64,000 bases of DNA from Theionarchaea archaeon (GCA_018992685.1 JACVGT010000002.1:1-64000); one strand, 5' to 3'. Positions 4,085 through 64,000 are shown, counted from the first letter of the stretch. Notes: generated by a model not told the origin, from the letters alone. A program made the numbers and translations.

Positions 4085-4413
4085 GATCCCTATCTCCTTT
4101 TTCAAGTCTCTCCAACTCGCTGCAACAGCCACTCTCCGAAATATTACTACTGTAAGTAGTAGCCGGTACCATTGTGCGCGGCTGTCTTATATATGTTTCG
4201 GTGAAAAGAAAACAATAGCTTCGTGGGCAATCCAGACTTCATGGTGAAAACTGGTGAAGAAATAGACGGGAAAACAAGATGGAGTGACATTCATGGCCGC
4301 TGGGAAACAGGTCTGCATCAATTGTGTTGTCTGGTAATAAAAGAATAAAAGAAAAAAAGAAAAGGGGAATATGAATCCGTCTCAAGGAAAGTGCATTTCA
4401 CAGGGATTCAGGT

Positions 4414-5388
4414 TCAGCCCAGTTCACCGTTGAATAGATTGGTGCGCTTCACATGGACAACTGCAAGACCCACCATCACGACAATCCACCCTGAAAAGAG
4501 CAAATGCTGCTGAGGGCTGAAATCACCCATGAAATACTCCAAGAACATGATGACAATCCAAAGGTGAGCGAAGTCCATGACGTGAGAGTGCTTTTCAGGA
4601 TGGGCAAAGTAATAGAGTGAGACATTGGCGCAGATCAAAGCTGCTGTGATATACAAATTGAGGAGACCACAAAACACGATGCTAAATCCAAAAAAAATCA
4701 CCAAGAACAGAACTTTCAGTGTATTTGATGTATTCTGACCCAGTTTCTGGACAGTATGGGACGCACTGCTGATCCTGTCTACATGAAAATCACGTACTTG
4801 ATTATCAATTTGTCCTATTAGACTTATCAGCAAAAGAATGACCACACTTCCCCATACAAATGATTCAGCTGTGACCTTCACTCCAATGAAGTAGAGATAG
4901 CTTGCAGCAATGATCAGACCTTTCCACAAGAAGACAAAGATCCAGTCCCAGTATTTACGGTCTCTCAGCCTCACTGGTGGCGCAGAATAGAGCAGAGCAA
5001 GCACGTTGAGCAGTAGGATGGGTATGAAGACAGCCCGGGTTATAGAAGCTGCCAAGACGAGGCTGGCTCCAGGGCTGATATAGAGGACTGCGGTTCCAAT
5101 CTTTCGGCGTTCTTCTGTGCAGAATACGTTTCTCGTCCCTTTGTTGGGGTCTCTGGAATCATGAGGGGCATCAAAAAAATCGTTGACGACGAACATGAAG
5201 ACATTACCGCAGAATACACTGACCGCGAGAATGATTACCTGCAATGAGAACCCCTGCAGATAATTCCAGAAGAATCCCACCAAGATTAGACCAGATGAAA
5301 CCACAGCATACTCAAATCGCAGATCTTCTAGGAGCAGCAACACAGACTGGCTTCGGCCGAGAACCTGGTAGCTGGAAGTGGACATCAC
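4414..5388 (-). CDS. UbiA-family prenyltransferase
   Basis: NDFFDAPHD and NQVRDFHVD Asp-rich motifs, YSAPPVRLR, multiple TM helices. Confidence 0.85.
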   Translation of the reverse strand: MMSTSSYQVLGRSQSVLLLLEDLRFEYAVVSSGLILVGFFWNYLQGFSLQVIILAVSVFCGNVFMFVVNDFFDAPHDSRDPNKGTRNVFCTEERRKIGTAVLYISPGASLVLAASITRAVFIPILLLNVLALLYSAPPVRLRDRKYWDWIFVFLWKGLIIAASYLYFIGVKVTAESFVWGSVVILLLISLIGQIDNQVRDFHVDRISSASHTVQKLGQNTSNTLKVLFLVIFFGFSIVFCGLLNLYITAALICANVSLYYFAHPEKHSHVMDFAHLWIVIMFLEYFMGDFSPQQHLLFSGWIVVMVGLAVVHVKRTNLFNGELG

Positions 5389-5664
5389 ACATCACCATCA
5401 GAGGGGGGATGGGTGATCCTGCTTGACAACGCATTCTTCTCACTGGAACTACTGGTACACACTGGGGGCATAGGCTGATGTTCAGACGTCGCTCCCCCGG
5501 ATGTCGAATCTCCCATAGAGTACATCTGCTTTGGATTCATTATCACAATCTGTAGAACAGATATTTAAACATTGCGTCATTAGAATTCAGAGGAGGTTGG
5601 AAAGGTGTCAGGAAAGAGCCTTTGACTCAACTTTATAAGTTCTCGTGACAGAGAGACTCAGGAG

Positions 5665-7053
5665 TTGACCCGCATGTTGGATATTCTAGAACGTTGCATT
5701 GATGTCTGTTCTCATCCTGAGCACCTATTGCAGATACGAGGCCAGAGGAGACAGGTGACAGCGTGCACTGTCAAGAATAGTGTCGTCCAGCAGTTCTCCA
5801 CCCTTTCTGTTCAAGGAGTGGGAGTGAGAGCCCGTGTTGATAATGGATGTTGGGGGTTCAGTTCAGTCAATACATGTGAAGCAAGCCAGGTGGAGCAGGC
5901 AGCCAGGCAGGCTGTGGCTTTGGGGAAAGCGGCTTCACGAGTTTCTCAGGATCGTGTTGAAATTCAGACACAGAAAGCCGTCACTGATACGGTTTCTTCA
6001 CCAGTCAAGGTTTCCCCTTCAGGATTAGCTGAAGAAATTGTGGACATTCCCATGAGGGCGTGCACGAGTGCGCTGGGTGCAGGACCGGAGATTAAAGATT
6101 GTAAAGCAACCTATATTAGTATGGAAGATCAAAAGTATTTTGTCAGTTCAGAAGGGTCACAGATCACTGAACATATTACAAGAATCATGCTGTTCGTCAA
6201 TGTGGTGGCAAGGAGGAATGATGTCGTCTGCCCGTGTTCTGACAATGTGGGGTTTACAGGGGGGTGGGAAGTTTTCGATGAAACCTCACCTGAAGAGCTG
6301 GGGCAGACGGTTGCAGAAAAGGCAGTGAATCTACTGGCCGCCAAGACCCCGCCCTCGGGTACGGTTCGTGTGATTATTGGCCCCAAGTTATGCGCTACCC
6401 TCCTTCACGAGGCCATTGGTCATCCCTTGGAGGCTGATCTTGCCATGGCGGGAGGAGGATTTGGCACTCAACTCAATAGACCAGTGTGTTCTGAATTGGT
6501 GACTATTTACGATGATGGACATGTACCAGGAGGGCTGGGCTATTTTTTCTATGACGATGAGGGGACACCCTGCACCCGTACCACCTTGATTGACTGCGGA
6601 GTTTTGAAATCATTCATGCATGACCGCGAGAGTGCCTCAGCTGCAGGGGTTCTACCCACCGGGAATGCTCACGCCTGGGACTACAGCGTGGAGCCCTTGA
6701 TCAGGCAAACCAACATCGGTATTGAACCAGGGGAATATACGGTCGAGGAGATGATAGAAGACGTCTCTGACGGATTGTTTCTGGAAGGAACCTTTGGAGG
6801 GCAAGCAGACTCCAATGCTGATTTCACTTTTGGCTTTCAGAGCGCCCGGGCAATTGAAAAAGGGGAGCTCACAGAGGAGTTCAGGGGTGCAAATGTGGCT
6901 GGAAATGCTATTGACGTGTTCAAGACCATTGACGCCGTGAGCAACACGTCAGTGTTGAGGCCCGGTGCATGCGGGAAGCATCAGTTCGCAGTTCAGGGAC
7001 GGGTGGTTCCAGCCATCAGGTGCCACATCATGGTGGGAGGACATGGAGGCTAG
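5665..7053 (+). CDS. tldD: TldD metalloprotease subunit
   Basis: HEAIGHPLEAD metal motif, YDDEG, RQTN, C-terminal CGK. Confidence 0.9.
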   Translation: MTRMLDILERCIDVCSHPEHLLQIRGQRRQVTACTVKNSVVQQFSTLSVQGVGVRARVDNGCWGFSSVNTCEASQVEQAARQAVALGKAASRVSQDRVEIQTQKAVTDTVSSPVKVSPSGLAEEIVDIPMRACTSALGAGPEIKDCKATYISMEDQKYFVSSEGSQITEHITRIMLFVNVVARRNDVVCPCSDNVGFTGGWEVFDETSPEELGQTVAEKAVNLLAAKTPPSGTVRVIIGPKLCATLLHEAIGHPLEADLAMAGGGFGTQLNRPVCSELVTIYDDGHVPGGLGYFFYDDEGTPCTRTTLIDCGVLKSFMHDRESASAAGVLPTGNAHAWDYSVEPLIRQTNIGIEPGEYTVEEMIEDVSDGLFLEGTFGGQADSNADFTFGFQSARAIEKGELTEEFRGANVAGNAIDVFKTIDAVSNTSVLRPGACGKHQFAVQGRVVPAIRCHIMVGGHGG

Positions 7054-7056
7054 ATC

Positions 7057-8436
7057 ATGGAAGAATGGAAGGTACTCCACGGCTTGTGTTCAAGAACTGT
7101 TACAGATCTAGAGAAAAAGGGAGTGACAGCAGAAGCTTTCCTTACAGCAGACAGTACCACTAAGGTATCTATCAGGAATTCCAGAATACTAACTCAAACC
7201 AACGAGAGAGACGCTGGCGTGGGAATACGGGTGATAAGAGGAAAAAGAGTGGGATTCGCCTGTACCAACGTGGTGACAAGGGAGGCTATCATGAAAGCAG
7301 GAGATATGGCATATCATATGTCCAGGGTGAGTTCTGAAGTGCCCGGACTTGAGTTGCCTGAGCCAGGTAGGTATCCAGTGGTCCAGGATTTATATGATGA
7401 AACCATCACGTCCATCACGGGTGACGAGGCAGTGGACGTTGCCTGCAGGGCCCTGACTGCAGCAGAAGGACATGATCCACGGGTGCGGGTGAAGAGTGGT
7501 GTTATCATGTTCAGGAGTGGCTGGCGAGGTGTAGTGTCTTCTTTGGGGATTGACAGTGAGGAGCAGGAAACAAGAGCCGCCATGTATCTGGGAGGAGTGG
7601 GTGAATCAGGTGATGAAGTCACCGGAATTTGCTCTGATTGTGAATGCGGTCGTACGGCGGTGCTTTCTCCTGAGACTCTGGGAGAGTCGGTAGGGGAAAA
7701 GGTGCTGGAAATGTTTCATCCGTGCTCGGTGAAAACAGGGAAAACCACGGTGATTCTGGGTCCAGAGGCAGGGAACTACCAGGTGATAGAAGTACTCATT
7801 GATGCACTGCGGGGAGATTCAGTCATGACAGGGCGTTCTTTCTGGACCGGGGAACTCGGATCTCCTGTCGCGAGTCCCCTCCTGAGTATCCATGATAATG
7901 GGGTATTGAGGAATGGCTTTTCGTCACGGCGATTTGATGACGAAGGGTACCCCTCTCAGGAAACTGTGGTTGTACAGGAGGGAGTTCTTGTATCCTATTT
8001 GCATAATGCTTGGTCTGCTCATGGGTTGAACGTGGAAAACACAGGAAATGCTTCTCGATTTGTAGGCGGGTTCGACCTTGTCCGTAATATTATTGGTTAC
8101 GGGTACCGTACAGAGCCAGAAATCTACTGTTCAAATCTGGTGATCCTTCCAGGAACCAAATCCAGAGATGAACTCGTGTCTGAGGTCTCTGAAGGGGTTT
8201 TGGTGGAATCAATGGCAGGATTTCCCCAGGCGGGATCTGGGGTGATCAGTGCACAATTATCTCGAGCATTTTCCATCAGGAACGGAGAGATACAGCACCC
8301 CGTAAAGGGCATGATCTCTGGAGTTGCATTTGACTGGCTAACCAAAATCTCTGATGTGGGAAATGACAGCAAGCAGTTTGAGAATGCCGTCCTCCCATCA
8401 CTACGAATTGAAGACGTCCACATGGTAGGTGGATGA
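7057..8436 (+). CDS. pmbA: TldE/PmbA partner subunit
   Basis: GVGIRV, FDDEG, TGNA; lacks HExxH; starts 3 nt after tldD. Confidence 0.88.
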   Translation: MEEWKVLHGLCSRTVTDLEKKGVTAEAFLTADSTTKVSIRNSRILTQTNERDAGVGIRVIRGKRVGFACTNVVTREAIMKAGDMAYHMSRVSSEVPGLELPEPGRYPVVQDLYDETITSITGDEAVDVACRALTAAEGHDPRVRVKSGVIMFRSGWRGVVSSLGIDSEEQETRAAMYLGGVGESGDEVTGICSDCECGRTAVLSPETLGESVGEKVLEMFHPCSVKTGKTTVILGPEAGNYQVIEVLIDALRGDSVMTGRSFWTGELGSPVASPLLSIHDNGVLRNGFSSRRFDDEGYPSQETVVVQEGVLVSYLHNAWSAHGLNVENTGNASRFVGGFDLVRNIIGYGYRTEPEIYCSNLVILPGTKSRDELVSEVSEGVLVESMAGFPQAGSGVISAQLSRAFSIRNGEIQHPVKGMISGVAFDWLTKISDVGNDSKQFENAVLPSLRIEDVHMVGG

Positions 8437-8447
8437 TTACCTGGAGA

Positions 8448-8897
8448 CTACCCGGTTATGGAGAAGGTTCCTTCTGCTACCGCACTCTTCTCGGATATCG
8501 TATCCGTTATAGTCACAGTTACAGTGTATGTTCCTTCACCAAGATTTGCAGTGGCAATCCAGAATTTGAACCATACGTAGACAGGCTTTCTCTCTAACGG
8601 TATTTCCATGGATTGGGTTATTTCTCCTTGGGAGATGCCCTGTGCGTCAAAGACCTCCAGCGTGGCATCAAAGTACGATACGTACCCTTCCTCCTCTTCC
8701 AGATATCCAAACCGAAAAGCCTCCATATACATCCACAATATGTCGCCTCTTGTATACGCAGCATCTGGATTTCGGCTGTACGAGCGATCAGAGGGTTCAG
8801 TATTGCAGAAAGTGATATCAGTGACAGTGAAGTTCTCTTGCCCTAAACAGCCTATCGCAAAGACTGCAACCAATACAAGACAGACGGACCATTTCAT
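8448..8897 (-). CDS. Lipoprotein with Ig-like domain
   Basis: Lipobox-like AIGCLG after a hydrophobic stretch; GTYTVTVTITD strand; BRE/TATA at about 8917-8932. Confidence 0.7.
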   Translation of the reverse strand: MKWSVCLVLVAVFAIGCLGQENFTVTDITFCNTEPSDRSYSRNPDAAYTRGDILWMYMEAFRFGYLEEEEGYVSYFDATLEVFDAQGISQGEITQSMEIPLERKPVYVWFKFWIATANLGEGTYTVTVTITDTISEKSAVAEGTFSITG

Positions 8898-8942
8898 AGA
8901 TTTCCTACCTCTTTGGGTATATTAACTTTTCCTTCCGTCTCT

Positions 8943-10088
8943 CTACACTGCTTCTACAATGATGTACCATATTCCGGAATAGGTGCCAGCTTCCATGGCT
9001 TCAGGAAGCACACCCCAGAATATGAGGTGGACTGAATCGTTCTGGCTGAATCCACGGGAACCTGCGTAGTTGGGGTATATCACCTGTTTATCTCCCGTGA
9101 GCTGCACCTGCTGGCCTGAAACCTCAACGTAAAAAGCCTCCACAGGCAGCATGTTTCCTTCAGGAGAATACAGGTTACTGCCTTCCACAGAAATATTCAC
9201 CCCAGAATTCGAGGTGACAACTACATAAAGGGAAACTCCGGACAGTTGCTCTCCTGGAGATCCCTTGCCGAAATCGACTCTAGTCATGGAAGAGCCTGTG
9301 CTGTCCTCCACACGAAAGGACATGTACCGGGTAACTGCCACATGTTCAGACACCTGTGCTGGCTGATACTCTGTGTCAATGGCCTCAATTAGCAGAATCC
9401 AATCTCCCGGGGCAGCTATCTCACCGAGTGAAAAGGTCAATGTCCATGCAATCTCAGTGGGCGTTACAGAAGCTGCAGCCTGTACAGGAAAATCTGACTT
9501 CCACACGGTATAAATATTGGGAGCCTCCCAGCTGAAAATATAACATTCTCTCTCAGATGGTGTCTTGGACTTTTGATAGAGCGTGACCTGTACAGAAGTC
9601 AGATCCTCCACCCCGAAATTATCTGAAACAGAAAAAGACAGTGCATACTCTTGGGCAGGATTGATAACATGTGGGTAAGACACCCCTGTTATCTCAGGTG
9701 GATAGTTGACCCCTATCTCAAAAAACGTCTTCTTCAGGATTTCTACTCCCCCCCAGGTCTTCACCGTAACCTCAGCTGTTCCCAGTCCAGGAGAGACGTT
9801 AAGAGGCAGATCACATCCATACTGATACACCTTCGTTGCAGCTGCATCAAGACGTTCAGTTCCTGCAGGATAGGTGTCCTCCACTGTGTACACCACATGC
9901 TGGGAATCAGACACCTCCACCCTCACAGACTGTAACCACTCCTCACCTGATGTTCTATTCTCAATTGTGACCTCAATTCTCATGGGCTCTCCCGGCTCAT
10001 AGAATGATTCATCCACCGTGATGTCAACTCTGAACCCGGGCAGCTGAACCACCAGCAACAGGAGAAGAACTCCCCACCTCATACTCAT
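8943..10088 (-). CDS. Secreted multi-Ig-like surface protein
   Basis: Signal peptide, beta-rich domains, ends AGTYSGIWYIIVEAV; ATGA overlap with the upstream gene. Confidence 0.65.
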   Translation of the reverse strand: MSMRWGVLLLLLVVQLPGFRVDITVDESFYEPGEPMRIEVTIENRTSGEEWLQSVRVEVSDSQHVVYTVEDTYPAGTERLDAAATKVYQYGCDLPLNVSPGLGTAEVTVKTWGGVEILKKTFFEIGVNYPPEITGVSYPHVINPAQEYALSFSVSDNFGVEDLTSVQVTLYQKSKTPSERECYIFSWEAPNIYTVWKSDFPVQAAASVTPTEIAWTLTFSLGEIAAPGDWILLIEAIDTEYQPAQVSEHVAVTRYMSFRVEDSTGSSMTRVDFGKGSPGEQLSGVSLYVVVTSNSGVNISVEGSNLYSPEGNMLPVEAFYVEVSGQQVQLTGDKQVIYPNYAGSRGFSQNDSVHLIFWGVLPEAMEAGTYSGIWYIIVEAV

Positions 10089-53898: not shown

Positions 53899-54615
53899 AT
53901 GTATGGCTGGCGGTGCAGAATAGGGCTGATCATACCTTCAGATAACACAGTCATGGAGAGTGAATTCAACAAGCTGTTCAGAGACATACCTGGTGTGAGT
54001 GTCCACGCAACCCGTGTCTTTCTGGAAGAACTCACTGTGGAAACATTGTTGCAGATGAAAGAGGGGTTGAAGAGAGCATGCGAAGAGCTCAAGAGTGCAG
54101 AGATGGATGTCCTTGCCTATGGTTGCACCAGTGGCAGCTTTGTTAAGGGATTGCATTTTGACCAGGAGATCATCCAGGAAATCGAAGAAGAGACCCAGAT
54201 AACTGCCACCACCACCTCCACAGCAGTTATTGAGGCATTGAGGAAGCTCAAGGTCAACAAGATCGCTCTGGGAACTCCCTATTCTGACGAAATCAACGAG
54301 AAGGCAATCCACTTCTTTGAAGGAAACAACATTGAAGTGACCAATTCTCGAGGGCTGAATGTTGTGCCTGACGTTGATGTTGGAAAGCAGGAACCCTACA
54401 TTGCATACAACCTGGGAATCAAAGTGAATACAGAGGATTGCGACTGCGTTTTCCTGAGCTGTACTGATTTCAGGACGGTTGAGATTATAGACCTTCTGGA
54501 AACCCGATTGAAAAAACCTGTCATCAGTTCAAACCAGGCCACCTTATGGCACTGTATTGCTCTGAAGAACCTGGGGATGACTCTCCCCGGGTATGGGACG
54601 CTTTTGGCAGGGTGA
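53899..54615 (+). CDS. Asp/Glu racemase superfamily enzyme (maleate isomerase / arylmalonate decarboxylase / EutA-like)
   Basis: RIGLIIPSDNTVME, YGCTSGS, TPY, SCTDF, KPVISSNQATLW. Confidence 0.88.
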   Translation: MYGWRCRIGLIIPSDNTVMESEFNKLFRDIPGVSVHATRVFLEELTVETLLQMKEGLKRACEELKSAEMDVLAYGCTSGSFVKGLHFDQEIIQEIEEETQITATTTSTAVIEALRKLKVNKIALGTPYSDEINEKAIHFFEGNNIEVTNSRGLNVVPDVDVGKQEPYIAYNLGIKVNTEDCDCVFLSCTDFRTVEIIDLLETRLKKPVISSNQATLWHCIALKNLGMTLPGYGTLLAG

Positions 54616-54628
54616 AGAAGGTGTAACA

Positions 54629-55963
54629 ATGTCAGAAGAAATCGAAATTGACGAAGCACGGTTGAACCAATTTGTCCCCGAACCAGGGTACCTGGACGTC
54701 AACCAGAAGGGACACCTTGAGTTTGACGGGGTGGACTGTGTGGATCTCCGGGATCAGTATGGGTCCCCCTTGTATGTCATGAGTGAGAGAAGGATACGAG
54801 AAAACTACCGCAGTCTTGTGAACACCTTCACAGCACTGTACAGCAGGGCGAAGATTGCCTATGCCTACAAGGCAAACCCCATATTGGCAGCTTTGAGAAT
54901 TCTCAATGAAGAAGGTGCTACAGCAGAAGTGATATCCACGGGTGAACTCTTCCTGGCAAAAGTGGTAGGTGTCAGGGGAGACAATATTGTGCTCAATGGG
55001 TGCTACAAGGACAGGAAGGGTATCAGACTGGCCATCAGAATGGGTGCTGTGATTAACGTTGATTCATTTCATGAACTGGACATGGTTGATGAGGAAGCAT
55101 CTCATGTGGGGATACCTGCCAGGATTGGAATCCGCATAAACCCCATAGTCAGAACGGGTACATTGAGTGTCTGGGAGACTGCCTTGGACGAAAGCAAATT
55201 TGGGATCAGGTTGGAAAAGGGGTTGGAAGCCTACAAAAAGGCAAAGAGCTTGAAGAACGTGGAAATTGTTGGAATACACACTCATATTGGATCTCAGATT
55301 GAGAATACCAACCCGTACCGCGTAGCCAGTACTCGGATTATGGATTTTGTGGGAGATCTCAAAGAAAAGCTGGACATTGATCTTGAACTGGTGGATCTAG
55401 GTGGCGGGATTGCTGTCCCCTTCAAGTACATTGACCGTGCTCTCCTGGAGGAGTATGCTCATGCCATACTGGATCCTTTCATCCAGAAAAAGGAAGAGTG
55501 TGGATTGGGAGATTGTGACGTGGTCATTGAGCCGGGAGGGAGTATCATCGGCACCTCCACTATTCTGCTGGTGACTGTGGGAACTGTAAAGAGAGAGGAA
55601 TCAGGCAGGAAGTGGGCCCTGGTGGATGGTGGTGCAAATATCAATCTGCGGGCTACCCAGGGGTGGTATGTGTACCAGTCTGTGTGCTGCAACAAAATGA
55701 GGGAGACAAAAAAAGAGGTTGTCAATGTTGCAGGTCCTCTGTGTTATGCAGGAGACGTTCTGGGATACAACAGGGAGTTGCCCTACCTGGATGAAGGCGA
55801 TGTCCTGGCATTTCTGGATTGCGGAGCATATACCATGGCTATTCTCAATAGGTACAATTCCTATCCCTTCCCTGCAGCTGTCCTCATCACAGACAGTGTA
55901 CCCAGGATTATCAAGAGAAGAGAAGCTCTAGTTGATCTTTTCATGGGAGAGGAACTTATATAG
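54629..55963 (+). CDS. Diaminopimelate decarboxylase-like PLP enzyme, divergent paralogue
   Basis: YAYKAN, SKFG, HTHIGSQ, DLGGG; EPGG and GPLCYAGD in place of EPGR and CESxD. Confidence 0.85.
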   Translation: MSEEIEIDEARLNQFVPEPGYLDVNQKGHLEFDGVDCVDLRDQYGSPLYVMSERRIRENYRSLVNTFTALYSRAKIAYAYKANPILAALRILNEEGATAEVISTGELFLAKVVGVRGDNIVLNGCYKDRKGIRLAIRMGAVINVDSFHELDMVDEEASHVGIPARIGIRINPIVRTGTLSVWETALDESKFGIRLEKGLEAYKKAKSLKNVEIVGIHTHIGSQIENTNPYRVASTRIMDFVGDLKEKLDIDLELVDLGGGIAVPFKYIDRALLEEYAHAILDPFIQKKEECGLGDCDVVIEPGGSIIGTSTILLVTVGTVKREESGRKWALVDGGANINLRATQGWYVYQSVCCNKMRETKKEVVNVAGPLCYAGDVLGYNRELPYLDEGDVLAFLDCGAYTMAILNRYNSYPFPAAVLITDSVPRIIKRREALVDLFMGEELI

Positions 55964-55992
55964 TTCTTCTTTCTATTATATTGTGTGATAGT

Positions 55993-57216
55993 ATGGATTT
56001 TCGCCAATTGACTGAGATCAGGACAACATATGGAACTCCGACCTATGTGTATGACAAGCAGGTCATGGTCACGCAGTATCAGACCCTGGCTCAGAGCATT
56101 CACTATACTCCTCTCAAAATATATTATGCCTGTAAAGCTAACACCAATTGCGTTATACTGAGAATATTTAAGGAGTTAGGGTGTGGGGTGGACTGTGTCT
56201 CACCTGGCGAAGTCTTTCTTGCTTTGAAAGCAGGATTCGATTCTTCTGACATTTTATTTACAGGCAACAATCTCACAAATTCTGAAATGAAGTATGCTGT
56301 TTCTCATGATGTTTTGATGACTGCAGATTCTTTGTCTCAATTGGAGCTGTATGGGCAGATAAACCCGGAATCTGACGTTTGTGTCAGGATCAATCCCAAC
56401 CTGGGGGCAGGGCACCACAAACACGTCATTACGGGAGGGCTTCAGAGTAAATTCGGCATATACCAGGCTGATGTTCCTTACATCAGGTCGCTTCTACATA
56501 AGTATAACCTCCATTTGAAAGGCGTCCACATGCATATTGGCTCGGGGATTCTAGAGCCCGGACTGCTTCTCAAGGGCGTGAGTTCTCTCTTGGACGTGGC
56601 CAGTGAGTTCCCGGACCTGGAATTTGTAGACATTGGAGGGGGACTTGGGGTCCCATACGAGCCAGAGGAAGCACCCATGGATGTGCAGAAATTTGGCGAG
56701 CTGCTCACAGACATGATAACCCAGTGGGTTGAGCAGCATCACCAGATTGCCCTGGCCTTGGAACCAGGACGATTTCTGGTGGCAGAATCTGGCATTCTTC
56801 TAACTACGGTGACTGCAGTCAAAGAGAATCCCAAGTACACCTTTGTGGGTGTGGACACAGGGTTCAACCATTTCATGAGGCCTGCCCTGTATAATGCGTA
56901 CCATGAAATCGTCAAAGTGGAGCCTTCAGAATCCAGAGGAGGACTTCAGGAACGTGTTGACGTCACGGTGTGTGGTGACATCTGTGAGAGTGCAGACATA
57001 TTTGCCAGAAACAGAGCCCTCCCACCACTCAAAGAGGGTGATCTTCTGGCTATTTTGGATACGGGAGCATATGGATTCAGTATGGCATCAGAGTATAATT
57101 CCAGACCGCTCCCTGCAGAAGTCCTGGTTGATAAAACAACTGTTACCGAGATCAGAAAGAGAGGAACGTTCCAGGACTTGTTACGCAATCAATGTGAGGT
57201 AGATACCAATGGATAA
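55993..57216 (+). CDS. lysA: Diaminopimelate decarboxylase
   Basis: YACKAN, SKFG, HMHIGS, EPGRFLV, RPALY, ICESAD, GAYG, YNSRP. Confidence 0.9.
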   Translation: MDFRQLTEIRTTYGTPTYVYDKQVMVTQYQTLAQSIHYTPLKIYYACKANTNCVILRIFKELGCGVDCVSPGEVFLALKAGFDSSDILFTGNNLTNSEMKYAVSHDVLMTADSLSQLELYGQINPESDVCVRINPNLGAGHHKHVITGGLQSKFGIYQADVPYIRSLLHKYNLHLKGVHMHIGSGILEPGLLLKGVSSLLDVASEFPDLEFVDIGGGLGVPYEPEEAPMDVQKFGELLTDMITQWVEQHHQIALALEPGRFLVAESGILLTTVTAVKENPKYTFVGVDTGFNHFMRPALYNAYHEIVKVEPSESRGGLQERVDVTVCGDICESADIFARNRALPPLKEGDLLAILDTGAYGFSMASEYNSRPLPAEVLVDKTTVTEIRKRGTFQDLLRNQCEVDTNG

Positions 57217-58336
57217 CCAGGAAATTAGGGCCCATTTCGAGCCTGCGGTGAGCAACTGGACATATTTGAACGCCGCAGCGTGCGGGCTTTCCCCGCAATT
57301 CAGTAAGACTGGATGCGATACGTGGTGGGACGATAAACTGACCCATGGATCAGTACATTACCATACATGGGAGGATGACACTCTCGAAATCAAAGCCAAG
57401 TTTGGGACCCTGATCAATGCAGAGAAAGAAGAGATTGCCTGCGTGATGAACACGTCAGAAGGGTTGAACTTTGCCATCAATGGTATGAGGTTCAAAAAGG
57501 GGGACAACGTCGTTGTGAATAAGTACGATTTTCCCTCCAATTTTCTGCCCTGGCTGGCCTTGAAGCAGAAGGGCGTCGAGGTACGGTTGATGGAGGTTAC
57601 GGATAATAGGATCCCCGTGGAACGTATTCAGGAGAAAGTCGATGAGAATACCAGAGCTGTGTCTATCAGCAGCGTTCAATTCAAGAACGGATTCCGCAGT
57701 GACCTGAAAGCACTTGGAGCATTGTGCAAGGAGGTTGATGCATATTTTGTGGTAGATGCTATCCAGTCACTGGGAGCGCTTGAAATGGATGTAAAACGGT
57801 ATGGAATTGACATTCTGTGTACCAGCAGCTACAAATGGTTGCTAGGCCCTGATGGTGTTGGCTTTCTGTACTGCAGCAAGGACATTCTGGATGAGATTTC
57901 CACCACGAATATTGGATGGATGAGTACACCTGATCCATGGAGTTTCCCCACTGAGCTGGAGTTCATGAAAACGGCTCAGAAATTCGAGTCTGGGACATTG
58001 CCCTGGGCCCTCCTGTACAGTATGGACCCTATCCTTGATTTCTTCCTCAAGGTAAAGGTGAAGAATATTACAGAACACGTTTTTGGGCTTCTTGATTACT
58101 TGATTGAGGAGCTGGAAGCCCTGCATGTGGACATTGTTTCATCCCTTCGAGAGAACGAGCGGAGCTGTATCCTGGTCTTTGATGTCAAGGACAGAGAGAA
58201 GCTTGTAGATCTCTATCAGAGCAAAAAGGTGAGAATCAGTCTCAGGGATGGAATACGGGTAGCCCCTCACATCTATAACAATGAGGATGATATTACCCGG
58301 CTTGTATCCATTTTAAAGGAGTTTCTGGGTGGTTAG
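57209..58336 (+). CDS. Class V PLP enzyme (cysteine desulfurase / epimerase-like)
   Basis: YLNAAA, NTSEG, VDAIQSLG, YKWLLGPDG, FESGT, RVAPHIYN. Confidence 0.85.
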   Translation: MDNQEIRAHFEPAVSNWTYLNAAACGLSPQFSKTGCDTWWDDKLTHGSVHYHTWEDDTLEIKAKFGTLINAEKEEIACVMNTSEGLNFAINGMRFKKGDNVVVNKYDFPSNFLPWLALKQKGVEVRLMEVTDNRIPVERIQEKVDENTRAVSISSVQFKNGFRSDLKALGALCKEVDAYFVVDAIQSLGALEMDVKRYGIDILCTSSYKWLLGPDGVGFLYCSKDILDEISTTNIGWMSTPDPWSFPTELEFMKTAQKFESGTLPWALLYSMDPILDFFLKVKVKNITEHVFGLLDYLIEELEALHVDIVSSLRENERSCILVFDVKDREKLVDLYQSKKVRISLRDGIRVAPHIYNNEDDITRLVSILKEFLGG

Positions 58337-59158
58337 ATGAAAATAGAAGGAATTACGTTCTATAAAATGTCTGGTGCAGGAAATGATTTCCTGGTTATTG
58401 ACAATCGAGAAGGCATCATCCCTGAGAAAGAGAAGGGTGACGTTGCCAGAAGAGTGTGCAGGAGACGGCTTTCAGTGGGAGCAGATGGGATTCTTCTGGT
58501 GGAGCTATCACAGATTGCCACCTTCAGAATGAGATATTTCAATGCAGACGGGACTGAAGGGGAAATGTGTGGAAATGGAGCACGATGCATTACCCGATTT
58601 GCTTTTGTGAAAGGGATTGCAGGCGAAGAAATGACAATTGAGAGTATGTCCGGGATACTGGAGGCACGCGTCATGGGTGAGAAGGCCACAATCACGCTGA
58701 ACCCAGTGACAGAAAAGGAACTTGACAGGGAGATTACGGTTGATGGCCAGAAGATACAGTTTGATTACATAGAAGAAGGAACACCCGGACTGCCGCACAG
58801 CGTGATATTCAAAGATGATCTGACTGAGGAGGAAGATATCGAAGAGATTGGCAGAAAAATAAGGTACCACAAAGCCTTTCAGAGGGGAACAAATGCTAAT
58901 TTCTGCAGAGTCCTGGGGAAGGATACAATCCTGAACAGGACCTACGAGAGGGGCGTGGAGAGAGAGACCCTGGCCTGTGGAACTGGGTCTGGAGCTGCTG
59001 CGTGTGCAGTATTCTTGCACGGAATCTGTGGACCTGAAATCGAGGTAAAAACCAAAGGTGGAACTCTCAAGGTCACCATAGGAGATGAAAACCTGCAGAA
59101 GATTTATTTGACTGGAGATGCTCGAATCGTGTATGAGGGGATCTTAAAGGAGGTATGA
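58337..59158 (+). CDS. dapF: Diaminopimelate epimerase
   Basis: KMSGAGNDF, GADG, NADG, EMCGNG, ERG, TLACGTG. Confidence 0.93.
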   Translation: MKIEGITFYKMSGAGNDFLVIDNREGIIPEKEKGDVARRVCRRRLSVGADGILLVELSQIATFRMRYFNADGTEGEMCGNGARCITRFAFVKGIAGEEMTIESMSGILEARVMGEKATITLNPVTEKELDREITVDGQKIQFDYIEEGTPGLPHSVIFKDDLTEEEDIEEIGRKIRYHKAFQRGTNANFCRVLGKDTILNRTYERGVERETLACGTGSGAAACAVFLHGICGPEIEVKTKGGTLKVTIGDENLQKIYLTGDARIVYEGILKEV

Positions 59159-59482
59159 TCGGAGCTGGGTTGAACCAGGACGTGGACAGATTGTCTGGTG
59201 CAGAGTCAGGGAATCGGATAAAATTCAGTAGTATTAGTTCTTCCGGAAAAGAGAGACTTCTTTTGATACATTTCTGCAAACGTGGTATATAGACCTTGCA
59301 CTTGGAGAATTTTTTCAAATTTGCCATTTGATTCACTGTATCCCTTCCAGGGATAACCTAAGGTTTCTCTACTCACACAGATCTAAATTGGTGTCATCGA
59401 TCACAGTAATCGGCATATATCCATCGATATGACTTTCACGCTCAGGATAATACTTATATTGAACAAAACCACCGGGCAATCC

Positions 59483-59695
59483 ATGGCTACAGAATCCAGA
59501 AGAAGATTCACCTTCCCTGTAGGATACCATGAGTTCCACAGAGACCAGGTTTTCAATTTCCAGCTCAATCGCTGGTATTCTCTTGGATATACACGATTCG
59601 AAGATTTGAAAGAGGCGGTTTCCTCCAGAATTCTAGAGTTTAGAAAAGGGCCACGACTGCATAATCTCAGTTTGATTCGAAAGAGAACACTCTAG
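59483..59695 (+). pseudogene. Probable truncated 5' remnant of an alpha/beta-hydrolase gene
   Basis: FPVGYHEFH...FNFQLNRWYSLG resembles from memory the N-terminus of longer hydrolases; resemblance stops near 59615 and AT-rich non-coding DNA follows. Confidence 0.45.
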
Positions 59696-60091
59696 AACAG
59701 CTGATCACTTCTTGTATCTACTCCGTTCTTTTCCTCCATGAATGGGGAACCTTATGAAAAGAACTGAAGGTATCCATTCCCGCTTCGTATGAACTACTAT
59801 TTCTTCTACTGTATTTCAACGTTTTAGTTCCAGGCTTTTTTCAAGTCCTCAAAAGTACTTTTCTAGCTGTTTTTTAGAAAATATGTCCTTAAAATATGAA
59901 GGCTCATAAACGTTCATAGTTCTACTATTCTTACCTTCAATTCTGCACTTTATGAATCATGTTTTTCTACCACGAACGCAAAGTAACAGTCAAATACGAC
60001 ATTCCAGTCCCGACTCCAGAGACTTGGTGCGCGTCATGAGTGAATAGCTAGATTTTTATATAACAGGTTTCAATGTCAAAATGGCGATGAA

Positions 60092-62530
60092 ATGATACAT
60101 TGTCCAGTATGCGGAGCAGAGAATCCTGTAGATTCTTTCTTCTGCGGAAGATGTGGAGAAAAGATAATTATTGAAAAGAGATCTCTGATTGACTGGCCAG
60201 ATTTTGAGAAGGCAGTTATTGACCGTTTGAAGAGAAACATTGGAAAAGAAGAAGATGATAATCAGAATAGAGCTATTGGAGCTCCTATCAACAGCTCTCT
60301 CTTCGTGGTTGCAGGTCCAGGGAGTGGCAAGACCACGGTTGTCGCTCTCAGAATACTGAAGTTGATATTTGTGGACGGTATAGATCCATCTTGTATCATC
60401 GCGACGACTTTTACACGCAAAGCAGCAGCTGAACTCCGATCTCGAATTCTTGGATGGGGAGATCAACTCAAACAATGGTTCATTACTGGCTCCATCTCTG
60501 AGTCTGATAGAGAATGGCTGAAAAAGCTTGATTTGAATCGGATTATTACAGGAACTCTTGATGAAATTGCAGAAACAATTTTAGGGGAAAACCGTTTCCC
60601 CGGAGACACTCCCCCTATTATAATCGAAAATTTCGTGTCAAAAGTACTGATGTTAAAATGTGGTCTTCTTCAGACCAATCTGCATTCTGATATGAACCTG
60701 GAAAACTTCATTATCTTTCTGAGAGATAGTAAATGGGAACTCACTATTTCGGAGAAGTGTTCCATTTTGCTCGAGTTGAAAGACAGATTTCTTCATGACC
60801 GTGTAGACGTTAGAGAATATCGTTCAGACTCCAGACACGCGGGAGCCAGACTAGCGTGTGAGGCAATAGGGGCATATATAGTTGAACTGAAGAAGAAAGA
60901 TCTCTTTGATTTCGCATTATTGGAATTACGATTATTCAATGATCTTAAAAATGGATTGTTAAATGAATTCCTTGGCAGTATCAGGTTTCTTCTAGTTGAT
61001 GAATACCAGGATACGAATTTGCTCCAGGAAGGAATTTATTTTGAAATTGCCAACGTGGTCACGAGAAATGATGGGAGCATTACTGTTGTTGGAGACGACG
61101 ACCAGTCTCTGTACCGATTTAGAGGGGCAACAGTTGACCTTTTCAAGACATTTCAGGAGAGAGTGAGTGAACAGCTGGGTCTGAACCCGTCTCAGATATT
61201 TCTTTCCAACAACTATAGATCGACGTCGACTATTGTTAATTTTTGTAATGATTTCATCAGACTTGATCAAAATTATCAGAAGACAAGAGTCAAAGAGAAG
61301 CCTTCTGTAAGACCAGCTCGTGCTAGGAGAAATCCAGAGTTCCCAGTCATCGGAATGTTCAGGCCTAATGTTGATCAGCTTGCACAGGATATTGCCACGT
61401 TTGTCCACGAAGTCATCCGTGGGAAGGGCTTCCGTATCAGGGATAATCAGAACGACATGACCTACACTATAAGAGTTGACGCTGACAGAGGAGGTCCTGC
61501 AGATGTTGCCCTTCTCTTTCATTCTCCTCGTGAATATAGTTATGAAAGAAGGAGACTCCCCTTGCTTTTGCGAGAAGAATTCAGCAAGTTCTTGCCACCA
61601 CTCCTGGTTTTCAATCCTCGAGGTCAGAATTTCGAGGAAATTCCTACTGTCAAAATACTCTGTGGCTTGTTACTGGAATGCATAGACCCAGGTAGTCGCG
61701 TCCAAAATGCGCTTAACCTCTCCTCTGCAGCACATGAGGTCATGGAAAAGTGGAGGGAGACTGCAAGGAGGTATGTTGAAACAAATCATGTATCCTCATC
61801 AATGGGCAGCCTTCGTTCCTTCATAGATACCTGGCAGAAAAGATCAACCCCAGGAATGAAGCGAAAAGTCAACATGAACGTGTCTCTGATAGCATTGGTG
61901 TACAAACTTATTACGTGGATACCACCCATGCAGGATGACATAGAGAATCTGGTCTATCTGGAAGCCATCGTAAGAACGATCAATCAACTGAACCCTTCTG
62001 GTAGATATGGGGGGCACATTGTGCTCAACAGTGAGAAGCTCTGGTTGCAGCAGGATTCCATAGAAGAAGCGATATACAGTATATTTTTCCCCATGGCATC
62101 TGGAGCAGTGGAGGTCAACGAGGATCTTTTTGAAACTCTTCCCAGGGACAGAGTCAACTGCATGTCCATTCATCAATCCAAGGGCCTGGAATTCCCTCTT
62201 GTTATCGTGGATGTGGGTTCTGAATTTCTAGGAGATAATGAAATGCAGGCATTCAAGAGATTCCCAAGACGAGGTGGAAGGACAAGTAGAATCGAAGATG
62301 AGACCAGAGACTATTCTGATCTGAGATTTTTCACAAGAACAGGCTTAGATAGGGAATTTGACGATTTGATTAGATTATATTTTGAAGCCTATAGTAGAGC
62401 CAAAGACTGCCTGATGCTCGTAGGCCTGGAAAGCGTCAAGTCTGGTCGAGTACCACATGTCGCCACCGGATGGGATCGAAACAGAACCTGGTTCTGGAGG
62501 CATACACTTGGAAATGTGCTCTATATCTAG
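60092..62530 (+). CDS. UvrD/PcrA-like SF1 helicase with N-terminal zinc ribbon
   Basis: CPVC...CGRC; AGPGSGKT, TFTRKAA, VDEYQD, VGDDDQSLYRFRGA, NYRS, SIHQSKGLEF, SRAK. Confidence 0.93.
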   Translation: MIHCPVCGAENPVDSFFCGRCGEKIIIEKRSLIDWPDFEKAVIDRLKRNIGKEEDDNQNRAIGAPINSSLFVVAGPGSGKTTVVALRILKLIFVDGIDPSCIIATTFTRKAAAELRSRILGWGDQLKQWFITGSISESDREWLKKLDLNRIITGTLDEIAETILGENRFPGDTPPIIIENFVSKVLMLKCGLLQTNLHSDMNLENFIIFLRDSKWELTISEKCSILLELKDRFLHDRVDVREYRSDSRHAGARLACEAIGAYIVELKKKDLFDFALLELRLFNDLKNGLLNEFLGSIRFLLVDEYQDTNLLQEGIYFEIANVVTRNDGSITVVGDDDQSLYRFRGATVDLFKTFQERVSEQLGLNPSQIFLSNNYRSTSTIVNFCNDFIRLDQNYQKTRVKEKPSVRPARARRNPEFPVIGMFRPNVDQLAQDIATFVHEVIRGKGFRIRDNQNDMTYTIRVDADRGGPADVALLFHSPREYSYERRRLPLLLREEFSKFLPPLLVFNPRGQNFEEIPTVKILCGLLLECIDPGSRVQNALNLSSAAHEVMEKWRETARRYVETNHVSSSMGSLRSFIDTWQKRSTPGMKRKVNMNVSLIALVYKLITWIPPMQDDIENLVYLEAIVRTINQLNPSGRYGGHIVLNSEKLWLQQDSIEEAIYSIFFPMASGAVEVNEDLFETLPRDRVNCMSIHQSKGLEFPLVIVDVGSEFLGDNEMQAFKRFPRRGGRTSRIEDETRDYSDLRFFTRTGLDREFDDLIRLYFEAYSRAKDCLMLVGLESVKSGRVPHVATGWDRNRTWFWRHTLGNVLYI

Positions 62531-62533
62531 GAT

Positions 62534-63733
62534 GTGAGAGGAATGACATTATCACCACAAGTCCCGCCGTACAAGATACCTGAATACAGCCTGACAGGAG
62601 ATTTACTGGCATACTTGAATTGTGGACTTCAATACAGGTACCATAATAGAGGATGTCTGCCGCCTTCAAGGCCAATTCAGTTGTGGTTTGGTGAGTTCAT
62701 TCATTCAGTCATGGAGGAAGCTTTCCTCCAATGGAAGCAAGATGCTCAGAAGAAGATATTTCCATGGATGTGGAATCCTGATATCCGCAACATTGAGCAA
62801 GAGATAGGCAAAAGACTGAGAGCACGAGGACTGATTCCACCTGCGAGAATCTTCTGCCCGTATGACTCATCATACCGGAGACAGGGATGGTGTCCAGATG
62901 GAAAGCACCCTCATAAACTGATTGCAAGCCGGAGAGCTGAAGAAGCGATTAACACATGGGGGGTACATCTCTTTCCCTTAATTGACAGTGCTGAGGTCCG
63001 GCTGAAAGGTATTCGTGATATGCCTGGTTCTACGGGGGAAAGGAGGTGTGATTACTATGAGATAACAGGGATCATTGATGTGATAAGCTCTGTCAATCTT
63101 CGTAATTCACTGTCTGGAAACCTGATATTGCACTACATGCAGAGAAACCCCGCTGTGAAGAAGTACATTGACAGTCTGAAGGGGCCTGAGTATGAGATTA
63201 TCGTTGACTACAAAGGAATGGGGAGACCCTCTTTAGGAGACCCGAGAAGAACCTGGACGTATCATGAATGGCAAATACTCACGTATGCCTGGCTTCGCAG
63301 TCAGCAGCCCGATGCCAGGCCTGTAGCTGCGGGGATCATTTTCTATCTCAATGAATTGGCGCCGGTGAGGCGAGACATCAGAGAGCTGCGCGAGAGTGTA
63401 GAAAGAGGTTCAACAGATGTCGTACCTCAAGGACAGGATTTAGACGTCGTCCAGAGTCTGGGAAGGAACGTACCCTTCCCATTTCTCTCGAGAGAATTCA
63501 GGGAAGAAAGGTCTATAAGGATTATTCCAATGAGTGAAGAGAGAGTCCAAGCCTCTCTACATGAATTTGATACTGTGGTGAAAAACATCGAATCTTGCGT
63601 GCACCTGGAGGTTTCTGGAAATGGCATTAGGTCGTCATGGCCTGCACAACCACTTGAACGTATGTGCACGCTCTGCGATTTCAGGACATTCTGCCCACAT
63701 CCGGACGTCTCTGAGTATGGAGAAAGCAGATGA
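62534..63733 (+). CDS. PD-(D/E)XK nuclease, RecB/AddB/Cas4-like with Fe-S-type cysteines
   Basis: N-terminal C (YLNCGLQY), GIID...VDYK, QILTYAW, C-terminal CTLCDFRTFCP. Confidence 0.88.
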   Translation: MRGMTLSPQVPPYKIPEYSLTGDLLAYLNCGLQYRYHNRGCLPPSRPIQLWFGEFIHSVMEEAFLQWKQDAQKKIFPWMWNPDIRNIEQEIGKRLRARGLIPPARIFCPYDSSYRRQGWCPDGKHPHKLIASRRAEEAINTWGVHLFPLIDSAEVRLKGIRDMPGSTGERRCDYYEITGIIDVISSVNLRNSLSGNLILHYMQRNPAVKKYIDSLKGPEYEIIVDYKGMGRPSLGDPRRTWTYHEWQILTYAWLRSQQPDARPVAAGIIFYLNELAPVRRDIRELRESVERGSTDVVPQGQDLDVVQSLGRNVPFPFLSREFREERSIRIIPMSEERVQASLHEFDTVVKNIESCVHLEVSGNGIRSSWPAQPLERMCTLCDFRTFCPHPDVSEYGESR

Positions 63734-63737
63734 TACT

Positions 63738-64000
63738 ATGGAAATGAAGTTCTATTTGCCAGATTGGGAAGACCGGCTGGATCCAGATTTTGATTTCGCC
63801 AATGACGAATATTCGGAAGGGCACAAAGAGAACCCCTATACATATGATATGTATGCGCATCAGCTCTTTGATACACCTCTCTGTGATGGAATTCTCGTCA
63901 GTCTGAGTATTTTCAGATCGAAAATCTCTTTGAATAAGGAAGAGACAAGCTATAGTATACGAGATTGCAGGAACATAAAGGATTTCCTCAGAATCCCGGG
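63738..64000 (+). CDS. dpdA: DpdA-like DNA-guanine transglycosylase (7-deazaguanine DNA modification), 3'-truncated by the window edge
   Basis: Not in the ORF track. Manual translation MEMKFYLPDWEDRLDPDFDF...DMYAHQLF...DGILVS...FLRIP matches the DpdA N-terminal pattern KxFxPDxxDxxDPxFDF...DxYxHE...DGxLVS...FxRxP as I recall it. Confidence 0.75.
   Translation, partial: MEMKFYLPDWEDRLDPDFDFANDEYSEGHKENPYTYDMYAHQLFDTPLCDGILVSLSIFRSKISLNKEETSYSIRDCRNIKDFLRIP

Follow-up and report, generated by a model that had tools for sequence, protein, structure and literature searches.

7-Deazaguanines in cellular DNA have so far been tied to large bacterial dpdA-K islands in which insertion of the modified base depends on DpdB. 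In Salmonella, insertion requires DpdB (PMC10164549), and a 2016 review found DpdB in 92% of dpdA-bearing genomes (PMC5699537). The BREX-related BRC system, with TGT and HerA/FtsK components, carries a TGT homolog without DpdB or DpdC, and its authors propose that another NTPase drives preQ0 insertion (PMC12839542). We analyzed a window of 64,000 nt, the first part of an 80,293-nt contig (C4) from the genome of a Theionarchaea archaeon (G000; 3.03 Mb, 45 contigs, 91% complete), and found at its 3' end a cassette encoding a UvrD-type helicase, a PD-(D/E)XK nuclease and DpdA. We hold with moderate confidence that this three-gene operon is a compact Dpd-type cassette for 7-deazaguanine DNA modification and restriction that does without DpdB. 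The DpdA helicase-nuclease cassette is apparently an undescribed short relative of Dpd; a full-text literature search, whose scope did not extend to Thiaville 2016 (PMC4801273), Yuan 2018 (PMC6207457) and their supplements, returned no description of this gene set.

The third gene links the cassette to Dpd. dpdA begins at an internal ATG at 63738, in an open frame of 63621-63998, and exactly 87 codons lie inside the window (63738-64000, + strand); on the contig it is complete at 63738-64994 and encodes 418 aa. The full protein scores 419.2 bits against NCBIfam NF041059 (cut-off 200) over profile positions 1-401 of 406, and it matches the PADLOC DpdA model (1.4e-123) and the DpdA of S. enterica serovar Montevideo, PDB 7UI4 (E = 1.1e-83). 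The 87-codon piece alone has no Pfam match. Asp95, Phe99, Asp130 and Asp256, which are named as catalytic in Salmonella DpdA (PMC10164549), align with D97, F101, D135 and D268, and the CxCxxC...H zinc site is preserved as C379/C381/C384/H406. Across 72 aligned DpdAs, D97, D135, D268, C379, C381 and C384 are invariant, and H406 is present in 71 (one gap). These matches show gene 3 to encode a full-length member of the DpdA family, a predicted DNA-guanine transglycosylase with all catalytic and zinc residues. The cassette thus shares with the Montevideo Dpd system an orthologous DpdA that has the same catalytic aspartates and zinc site.

The first gene (60092-62530, + strand) encodes an 812-aa helicase of the UvrD/PcrA type, in superfamily 1A (SF1A). 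It has Pfam matches to UvrD-helicase (1.5e-43), UvrD_C (8e-9) and an N-terminal zinc ribbon/DZR (residues 2-25), and among PDB sequences it is closest to UvrD, PcrA, Rep and AddA. Its translation holds GPGSGKT, VDEYQDT, GDDDQSLYRFRGA, NYRS and SIHQSKGLEF, which we take to be SF1A motifs. Among PADLOC models, GajB-type UvrD helicases match best (3e-32). The helicase therefore resembles the GajB of Gabija, but the cassette lacks an OLD-family GajA and has a PD-(D/E)XK Fe-S nuclease and DpdA as partners. Most helicase homologs align by tblastn only from about residue 20-55 on, and the zinc ribbon (window 60092-60166) may accordingly be confined to a few helicase copies.

The second gene is called at 62534-63733 (+ strand), giving 399 aa from a GTG. 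Because its homologs begin M-x-L-S, the start is more likely the ATG at 62543, which gives 396 aa and a first intergenic gap of 12 nt rather than 3. The protein matches Pfam PDDEXK_1 (5.2e-11) and, in PADLOC, Cas4 (5e-7), with an NCBIfam cas4 score of 18.1 bits against a cut-off of 65. D182, D225-Y226-K227, Q247, Y251 and four cysteines (C30, C378, C381 and C387) are invariant across 22 homologs. An AlphaFold model built on the homolog alignment (mean predicted local distance difference test score, 83) was compared with the PDB by Foldseek; AddB chains matched best (E about 1e-4), followed by ACE1, Cas4 and AdnAB, with modest TM-scores of 0.37-0.46 on the query. A profile of the nuclease family found no match among PDB sequences up to E = 1, and these relatives come from the fold search only. 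From alignment and model, gene 2 is a predicted AddB/Cas4-like PD-(D/E)XK nuclease of the four-cysteine type, with a predicted Fe-S cluster (62543-63733 from the preferred start). Against PHROGs the DpdA had no match, and the cassette's only hits were a generic one to helicases and a weak, Cas4-like one. Helicase and nuclease are each present just once in the host genome.

How does this pair compare with known helicase-nucleases? Like AddAB and AdnAB, it combines a UvrD-like SF1 motor with a RecB-family nuclease whose four cysteines have the AddB/Cas4 arrangement. Unlike them, it has a helicase without a nuclease domain and a nuclease of 396-399 aa without a helicase domain, as against an AddB of about 1,150 aa; the two proteins are paired as neighboring genes, and the TM-scores to AddB and AdnAB chains lie in the same low range. 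With Cas4 and the Argonaute-associated ACE1, which are among the top fold matches, the nuclease shares the PD-(D/E)XK core, QxxxY and a C...CxxC...C cluster. It differs in its sub-cut-off NCBIfam score and in having about 150 additional, conserved residues as its N-terminal half, and no cas or Argonaute genes lie near the cassette.

An initial annotation, made from the window sequence alone, had described three tightly packed, co-oriented genes after an AT-rich spacer and had named them as UvrD, a PD-(D/E)XK nuclease and DpdA, the last from its 87 visible codons. ORF calls and sequence reads bear out this layout, and all three identities were right. With the starts as called the intergenic gaps are 3 and 4 nt, with stop and start codons confirmed by sequence reads; the first is probably 12 nt and the second 4 nt. 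The same annotation took these genes for the start of an island, which they are not, because dpdA is the last gene of the cassette and housekeeping genes come after it. The system consists of three genes. 3' of dpdA lie a convergent ArsR-type regulator, a beta-lactamase-family protein and a cobalamin-type ATP-binding cassette transporter, and further on are cobalamin salvage genes (CobS, CbiZ, CobD, CobQ and others), the S component of an energy-coupling factor transporter and a methyltransferase. Neither dpdB, dpdC nor any que gene is found in the 15 kb 3' of dpdA, up to the contig end, and HerA and NurA are likewise absent.

By its gene content, the host supplies the substrate. It is an archaeon, as judged from its genes for Ftr, formylmethanofuran dehydrogenase-type and Hdr-type proteins, CofD and prefoldin, and from the closest named Ftr, which is 87% identical and belongs to a Theionarchaea metagenome-assembled genome. 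QueD, QueE and QueC homologs lie together on another contig (C10:1721-4177; tblastn 1e-15 to 6e-50), a tRNA-type TGT on C3 (271 bits) and an ArcS-type DUF5591 gene on C14. With these genes the host has the archaeosine pathway and makes preQ0 whether or not the cassette is present. Dependence on preQ0 from the queuosine/archaeosine pathway is a further likeness to Dpd, as is a sporadic, horizontally spread distribution. A third TGT-superfamily gene (C21:1187-2140, - strand) scores 135 bits against Pfam TGT and 53.6 bits, below the cut-off, against the DpdA model.

The other Dpd proteins are a different matter. The host genome, at 91% completeness, has no match to DpdB, the ParB/DndB-like ATPase (NF041060); the same search found two DpdB copies in a sphingomonad genome that served as positive control. 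DpdD likewise had no match in the host genome, in a search that had no positive control for DpdD, and DpdE had only generic helicase matches, at 28 bits against a cut-off of 500. None of the DpdD-K restriction genes lies in the 15 kb 3' of dpdA, the stretch to which the search for DpdF-K was confined. Set against Dpd, then, the cassette lacks DpdB, which Salmonella insertion requires, and has an SF1 UvrD helicase and an AddB/Cas4-like nuclease in place of DpdD, E, F, J and K. It comprises three to four genes in 5 kb, as against about 20 kb, its DpdA belongs to a separate clade, and the window copy has no DpdC/DUF6884 in cis. BRC resembles it in having a TGT homolog without DpdB or DpdC, but its partners are PglZ, BrxC-like, STAND NTPase, HerA and GNAT proteins, and it has no UvrD or Cas4-like nuclease (PMC12839542).

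Is this gene set peculiar to one archaeon? A scan with the single DpdA sequence gave no relatives, and an alignment-based scan did. At least 5,165 DpdA homologs were found at E <= 1e-10, with 8,000 candidates scored. Among the matches listed, the closest named DpdAs are archaeal, from Methanoperedens (65% identity) and from Methanocaldococcus and Methanothermococcus (57-58%). For gene neighborhoods we took one genome per species and fetched the best 80 of 116 confirmed relatives; genes were called with a simple ORF picker and clustered, and cluster representatives were annotated. Three loci without a called DpdA ORF were excluded, and partners were counted within 6 kb in the remaining 77 and the window. 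UvrD and the nuclease without DpdB accompany DpdA in 35 of these 78 loci (34 fetched plus the window), DpdB only in 25, both the pair and DpdB in 3, UvrD only in 3, and neither UvrD nor DpdB in 12. By record title, 13 of the 34 fetched trio loci are archaeal and 21 bacterial, the archaeal hosts including Methanoperedens, Methanotrichaceae, Methanoregula, Methanothermococcus, Methanobacterium, Thermoplasmata and Altiarchaeota. Across 20 full trios, the identities of the three proteins to the window copies co-vary (Spearman 0.83-0.91). DpdB is absent from all four other module-bearing genomes searched (three chromosome-level or complete and one shotgun chromosome, by title), and DpdD, E, F, J and K are absent from the trio loci whose gene clusters were annotated.

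The phylogeny of DpdA follows its partners. In a quick maximum likelihood tree of 72 rows, from which sequences below 380 aa had been dropped, a branch with a Shimodaira-Hasegawa-like approximate likelihood ratio test (SH-aLRT) value of 100 splits a 31-row clade from a 41-row clade. The former holds 25 DpdB-linked rows, 3 with both DpdB and the pair and 3 others; the latter, which includes the window DpdA, holds 33 rows with UvrD and nuclease, 8 others and none with DpdB. In these sequence comparisons, the UvrD-nuclease-linked DpdAs show themselves to be a clade never found with DpdB in the sampled loci, with a HerA-type ATPase as a rarer partner. A Gln at the position of Salmonella His181 had been considered as a signature of DpdB independence and was rejected, as all 72 DpdAs in both clades have it.

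In other loci of the DpdB-less clade, HerA-type or BrxC/D-like ATPases replace the UvrD-nuclease pair. DpdA with DUF6884, or DpdA alone, occurs with such motor partners in six loci: a HerA-type (DUF87) ATPase with a 450-630-aa protein of no family in L017, L025, L029, L111 and L112, and a BrxC/D-like ATPase in L013. The HerA pair lies 5' of UvrD-nuclease-DpdA in L111 and L112. From gene content, these HerA and BrxC/D partners appear to be motor modules that can stand in for one another beside a single kind of modification enzyme, and since the ATPase partners are interchangeable, the arrangement looks like a constant modification module with a variable effector. Three hybrid loci, from Caballeronia, Acidovorax and Steroidobacteraceae (L065, L066 and L082), have UvrD-nuclease directly 5' of dpdC-dpdA-dpdB-queC/E/D-dpdB, and the 19 kb fetched for each include none of DpdD, E, F, J and K. 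Because these loci have DpdB in addition to the pair, the pair is not merely a substitute for DpdB.

Two further expectations of the initial annotation can be judged here. It had proposed a noncanonical archaeal modification system, and the noncanonical part stands: there is no DpdB or DpdD, DpdE matches are only generic, and an SF1 helicase and a nuclease are present. The host is indeed archaeal, and the type is not archaea-specific, 21 of 34 trio loci being bacterial. It had also named findings that would speak against it, namely that the complete ORF would prove to be a tRNA-acting TGT or unrelated to DpdA, or that the pair is never linked to dpdA elsewhere. Neither was borne out: the tRNA TGT is a separate gene on another contig, with ArcS elsewhere too, and the pair is linked to DpdA in 34 of the 77 other loci.

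Nearly all relatives carry a fourth component, a DUF6884 protein of 150-160 aa (Pfam 5e-12 to 9e-18; weak YaaA match). It is a separate gene in 18 of the 35 trio loci, and in another 15 the DpdA ORF is long, with at least 540 aa. A C-terminal DUF6884 was seen on the long form of DpdA in one scanned protein (P0053) and in 13 of 120 listed homologs; the long ORFs were not all scanned for this domain. Just two of the 35 lack both a solo DUF6884 and a long DpdA, namely the window and a truncated contig. DUF6884, a relative of YaaA, bears CxxxK and LSAxxG motifs (PMC11701544), and one preprint identifies it as the domain of DpdC (10.1101/2025.02.24.639861), which adds to the likeness between Dpd and the relatives of this cassette. 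Vut_1/YhhQ-type transporters occur in cassettes L009, L011, L034 and L038, and QueC in L034, L038 and L050. By tblastn and hidden Markov model (HMM) search, neither the cassette nor contig C4 has DUF6884 or DpdC. The host does have a single, solo DUF6884 gene on another contig (C2:80510-81058, + strand), in a core metabolic setting between formylmethanofuran-dehydrogenase-type genes and CofD/AspRS. It is conserved in both same-genus genomes (77% and 59% identity), which lack DpdA. Across the phylum, 26 of 133 genomes keep it, and DpdA is found in none of the 26.

The cassette is foreign to the host and was acquired horizontally as a 5.0-kb unit. Of 133 genomes in the phylum, only the host has DpdA, and only the host has the nuclease. 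In one same-genus genome (G032), blastn homology ends at 59156, the end of dapF, and the cassette is not beside dapF; homology restarts at contig position 65155, on another G032 contig, at 93% identity. A nearly identical stretch of DNA across the region is found in one public run (X3). Runs X4, X7 and X11, from three different studies, contain copies that are 90-95% alike with unlike sequence on both sides. These copies match only positions 1046 to 6046-6083 of the window locus (L001, in which 1046 is window position 60046), and X4 and X7 share the left loose end. The match limits therefore delineate a 5.0-kb unit, from window 60046 to contig 65046-65083, in differing contexts. No convincing direct or inverted repeats flank it, only short imperfect pairs of the chance type, and no att-like sites were seen. 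A simple empty site in G032 was sought and none was usable, the two flanks lying on different G032 contigs. In G032, dapF is 1.5 kb from a methyltransferase gene, and the same methyltransferase lies at C4 79379-80293 in the host; this spacing puts the cassette on the border of a block of about 20 kb that has been rearranged. Besides the cassette, that block (window 59157 to C4 79378) takes in the genes for the ArsR regulator, the beta-lactamase-family protein and cobalamin transport and salvage, and part of it sits on another G032 contig at 88-93% identity.

How might such a cassette work? DpdA would exchange guanines in the cell's own DNA for preQ0. The SF1 helicase would provide ATP-driven opening or loading of DNA, the part played by DpdB in Salmonella, and helicase and nuclease, acting as a small AddAB, would unwind and degrade incoming DNA that lacks the mark. 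In relatives, the DpdC-like DUF6884 protein may finish the mark, for example by taking preQ0 to ADG; DpdC itself is a DUF328/DUF6884-type enzyme that turns dPreQ0 into dADG. Since no DUF6884 is encoded in cis, the mark here would be dPreQ0, unless the solo DUF6884 protein of the host acts in trans. A bolder version, which we regard as rather unlikely, treats the 7-deazaguanine mark as a signal to a moving motor. The mini-AddAB would load at DNA ends and degrade processively until it meets dPreQ0 or dADG, in the way that RecBCD/AddAB are tamed by Chi, with the helicase also replacing DpdB in writing the mark. If this were true, a sparse mark would protect the whole chromosome, and self would be told from non-self by a new logic. 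Archaea would then also have their first chromosomal system for modifying DNA with 7-deazaguanine, of a type carried by at least 13 archaeal and 21 bacterial species-level genomes.

Several observations weigh against a modification-restriction cassette, and the main caveat comes from the nuclease side. A nuclease-alignment scan of metagenome contigs, of which we kept the best 80 of 262 confirmed relatives, and of viral contigs, which gave one, yielded 78 nuclease rows after four loci with a nuclease ORF below 340 aa were dropped and the window was added. UvrD lies just 5' of the nuclease in nearly all of the scanned loci. DpdA is present in 23 rows (window included) and absent from 28 with enough flank, that is, at least 1.5 kb downstream and 4.2 kb upstream; 27 rows could not be judged. 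The pair is thus not DpdA-specific, as 28 of 51 evaluable loci lack DpdA, and in a 34-row clade of the nuclease tree (SH-aLRT 99) DpdA is seen in no row (24 lack it, and 10 are not evaluable). The window nuclease falls in a 12-row clade (SH-aLRT 100) with DpdA in 9 rows and 3 not evaluable, and the DpdA label changes at least 5 times on the tree. By gene content, the pair is a wider, apparently self-standing helicase-nuclease module, of which one lineage is tied to DpdA. Neighbors of DpdA-less pairs include an ExoIII-type nuclease, an MrfA-like DEAD helicase with an MZB domain, DUF169, Rad50/SbcC-type proteins and helix-turn-helix (HTH) regulators; such repair-like settings weaken a restriction role, which we infer, and allow that the pair may serve processing or repair instead of restriction. 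Within the cassette itself we identified no domain able to read the mark, and PADLOC has no system model for the gene set. The window copy may also be incomplete, because it is without the DUF6884 partner that almost all relatives keep, and the solo DUF6884 of the host has another role, to judge from its retention in same-genus genomes that lack DpdA. Finally, the comparisons draw on best-ranked loci only, on crude gene calls and on two quick tree searches with SH-aLRT values only.

An alternative that we consider possible, if clearly less probable, is modification with a built-in processing or repair partner and no restriction. The helicase would replace DpdB, nuclease and helicase would clear the products of failed exchange, such as abasic sites or covalent DpdA-DNA adducts, and the mark would have another purpose, for example nuclease protection or an epigenetic role. 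The DpdA-less pairs beside ExoIII/AP-endonuclease-type, MrfA-like, Rad50/SbcC and DUF169 genes fit this proposal, and most DpdB-less DpdA loci with enough flank do carry an ATPase, be it UvrD, HerA or BrxC/D-like. Exchange in Salmonella needs ATP hydrolysis by DpdB, for which helicase-like opening of DNA has been considered (PMC10164549), and the DUF6884 member YfjM is reported as one of the binders of abasic and RNA-base lesions (PMC11701544). A repair partner is harder to reconcile with the three hybrid loci, which have DpdB and the pair without DpdD-K; an ATPase role for the pair is unnecessary in these loci, and it occupies the usual place of the restriction genes. Moreover, DpdA and DUF6884 join interchangeable motor-effector modules, as happens in modification-restriction systems, and the cassette is mobile and sporadic, which is typical of defense genes. 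A type IV-like defense, in which a DpdA-like enzyme recognizes or excises viral 7-deazaguanines, helicase and nuclease degrade the DNA and the host DNA stays unmodified, seems to us improbable. It would suit the presence of 7-deazaguanines in many phages and archaeal viruses (PMC6884629), the existence of glycosylases that attack such DNA as a known kind of defense (10.1101/2025.10.29.685425), and a viral contig (L174) on which DUF6884, UvrD and the nuclease adjoin an Mrr-type type IV nuclease without DpdA. However, related cassettes carry QueC and a YhhQ-type transporter, as would be expected if preQ0 is used and not removed; the full transglycosylase active site is kept, including the general acid/base that activates the incoming base; and the protein scores as an equivalog-level DpdA. 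That a tRNA-acting TGT paralog lies by chance beside an unrelated repair helicase-nuclease is very improbable. The Pfam TGT match of the full protein is weak (4.2e-9) and UvrD-nuclease pairs do exist without DpdA, but the protein scores 419 bits as DpdA against 29.7 bits for the archaeal TgtA model TIGR00432 (cut-off 350), the host has its own tRNA TGT and ArcS, and the trio recurs in those 34 other loci, across two domains and with matching divergence, its genes moving as one 5-kb unit.

A cassette of this type, which occurs in archaea and bacteria, would offer a route of three to four genes, free of DpdB, to the same chemistry as Dpd. Two questions could be put to a small construct: whether DpdA works with a helicase instead of DpdB, and whether archaeal chromosomes bear 7-deazaguanine marks that come from the archaeosine precursor pool. 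The window copy, being without DUF6884, is a natural test of the need for that partner, and the DpdA-linked and DpdA-less clades of the pair are a natural experiment in how a repair-type module may join a modification-dependent system.

The DpdA-less clade (L113-L115, L121-L123, L125, L131, L134-L135, L138-L148, L151, L155 and L157-L170) has its own typical gene order, with an MrfA-like DEAD/MZB helicase, the pair, and then DUF169 or an ExoIII-type nuclease with an HTH regulator; Rad50/SbcC is near. From this order it looks like a separate mini-AddAB repair module, possibly undescribed. Separate zinc-ribbon proteins of about 200 aa lie near DpdA-less pairs, and some such pairs adjoin GmrSD, RhuM or Mrr genes. 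On the IMG/VR viral contig L174, positions 3377-9185 hold the Mrr-type nuclease, DUF6884, UvrD and the nuclease without DpdA, and genes for an SNF2 helicase and an anaerobic ribonucleotide reductase are found beyond them. On this contig DUF6884 accompanies the pair in the absence of any transglycosylase.

The AT-rich spacer between dapF and the cassette (about 930 nt) contains no matched gene (59159-60045, strandless, by GC content and Pfam scan), and in G032 nothing corresponds to it beside dapF. GC content over 59159-60091 is 0.37-0.42, as against 0.44-0.52 in 500-nt windows of 54000-59000. Pfam has no family for either of the two ORFs scanned in it, of 88 and 86 aa. The idea that it holds a degraded DUF6884 gene was dropped, as neither tblastn (E up to 10) nor HMM search of six-frame ORFs found one on contig C4, and Rfam at gathering scores found no RNA family within the window. 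The last stretch before the helicase (60046-60091, + strand) combines the left edge of the mobile unit, where matches in the contigs of other runs start, with a probable promoter. Positions 60053-60063 read TTTTTATATAA, a TATA-like element some 30 nt 5' of the helicase ATG and a putative archaeal promoter that would leave a short leader or none.

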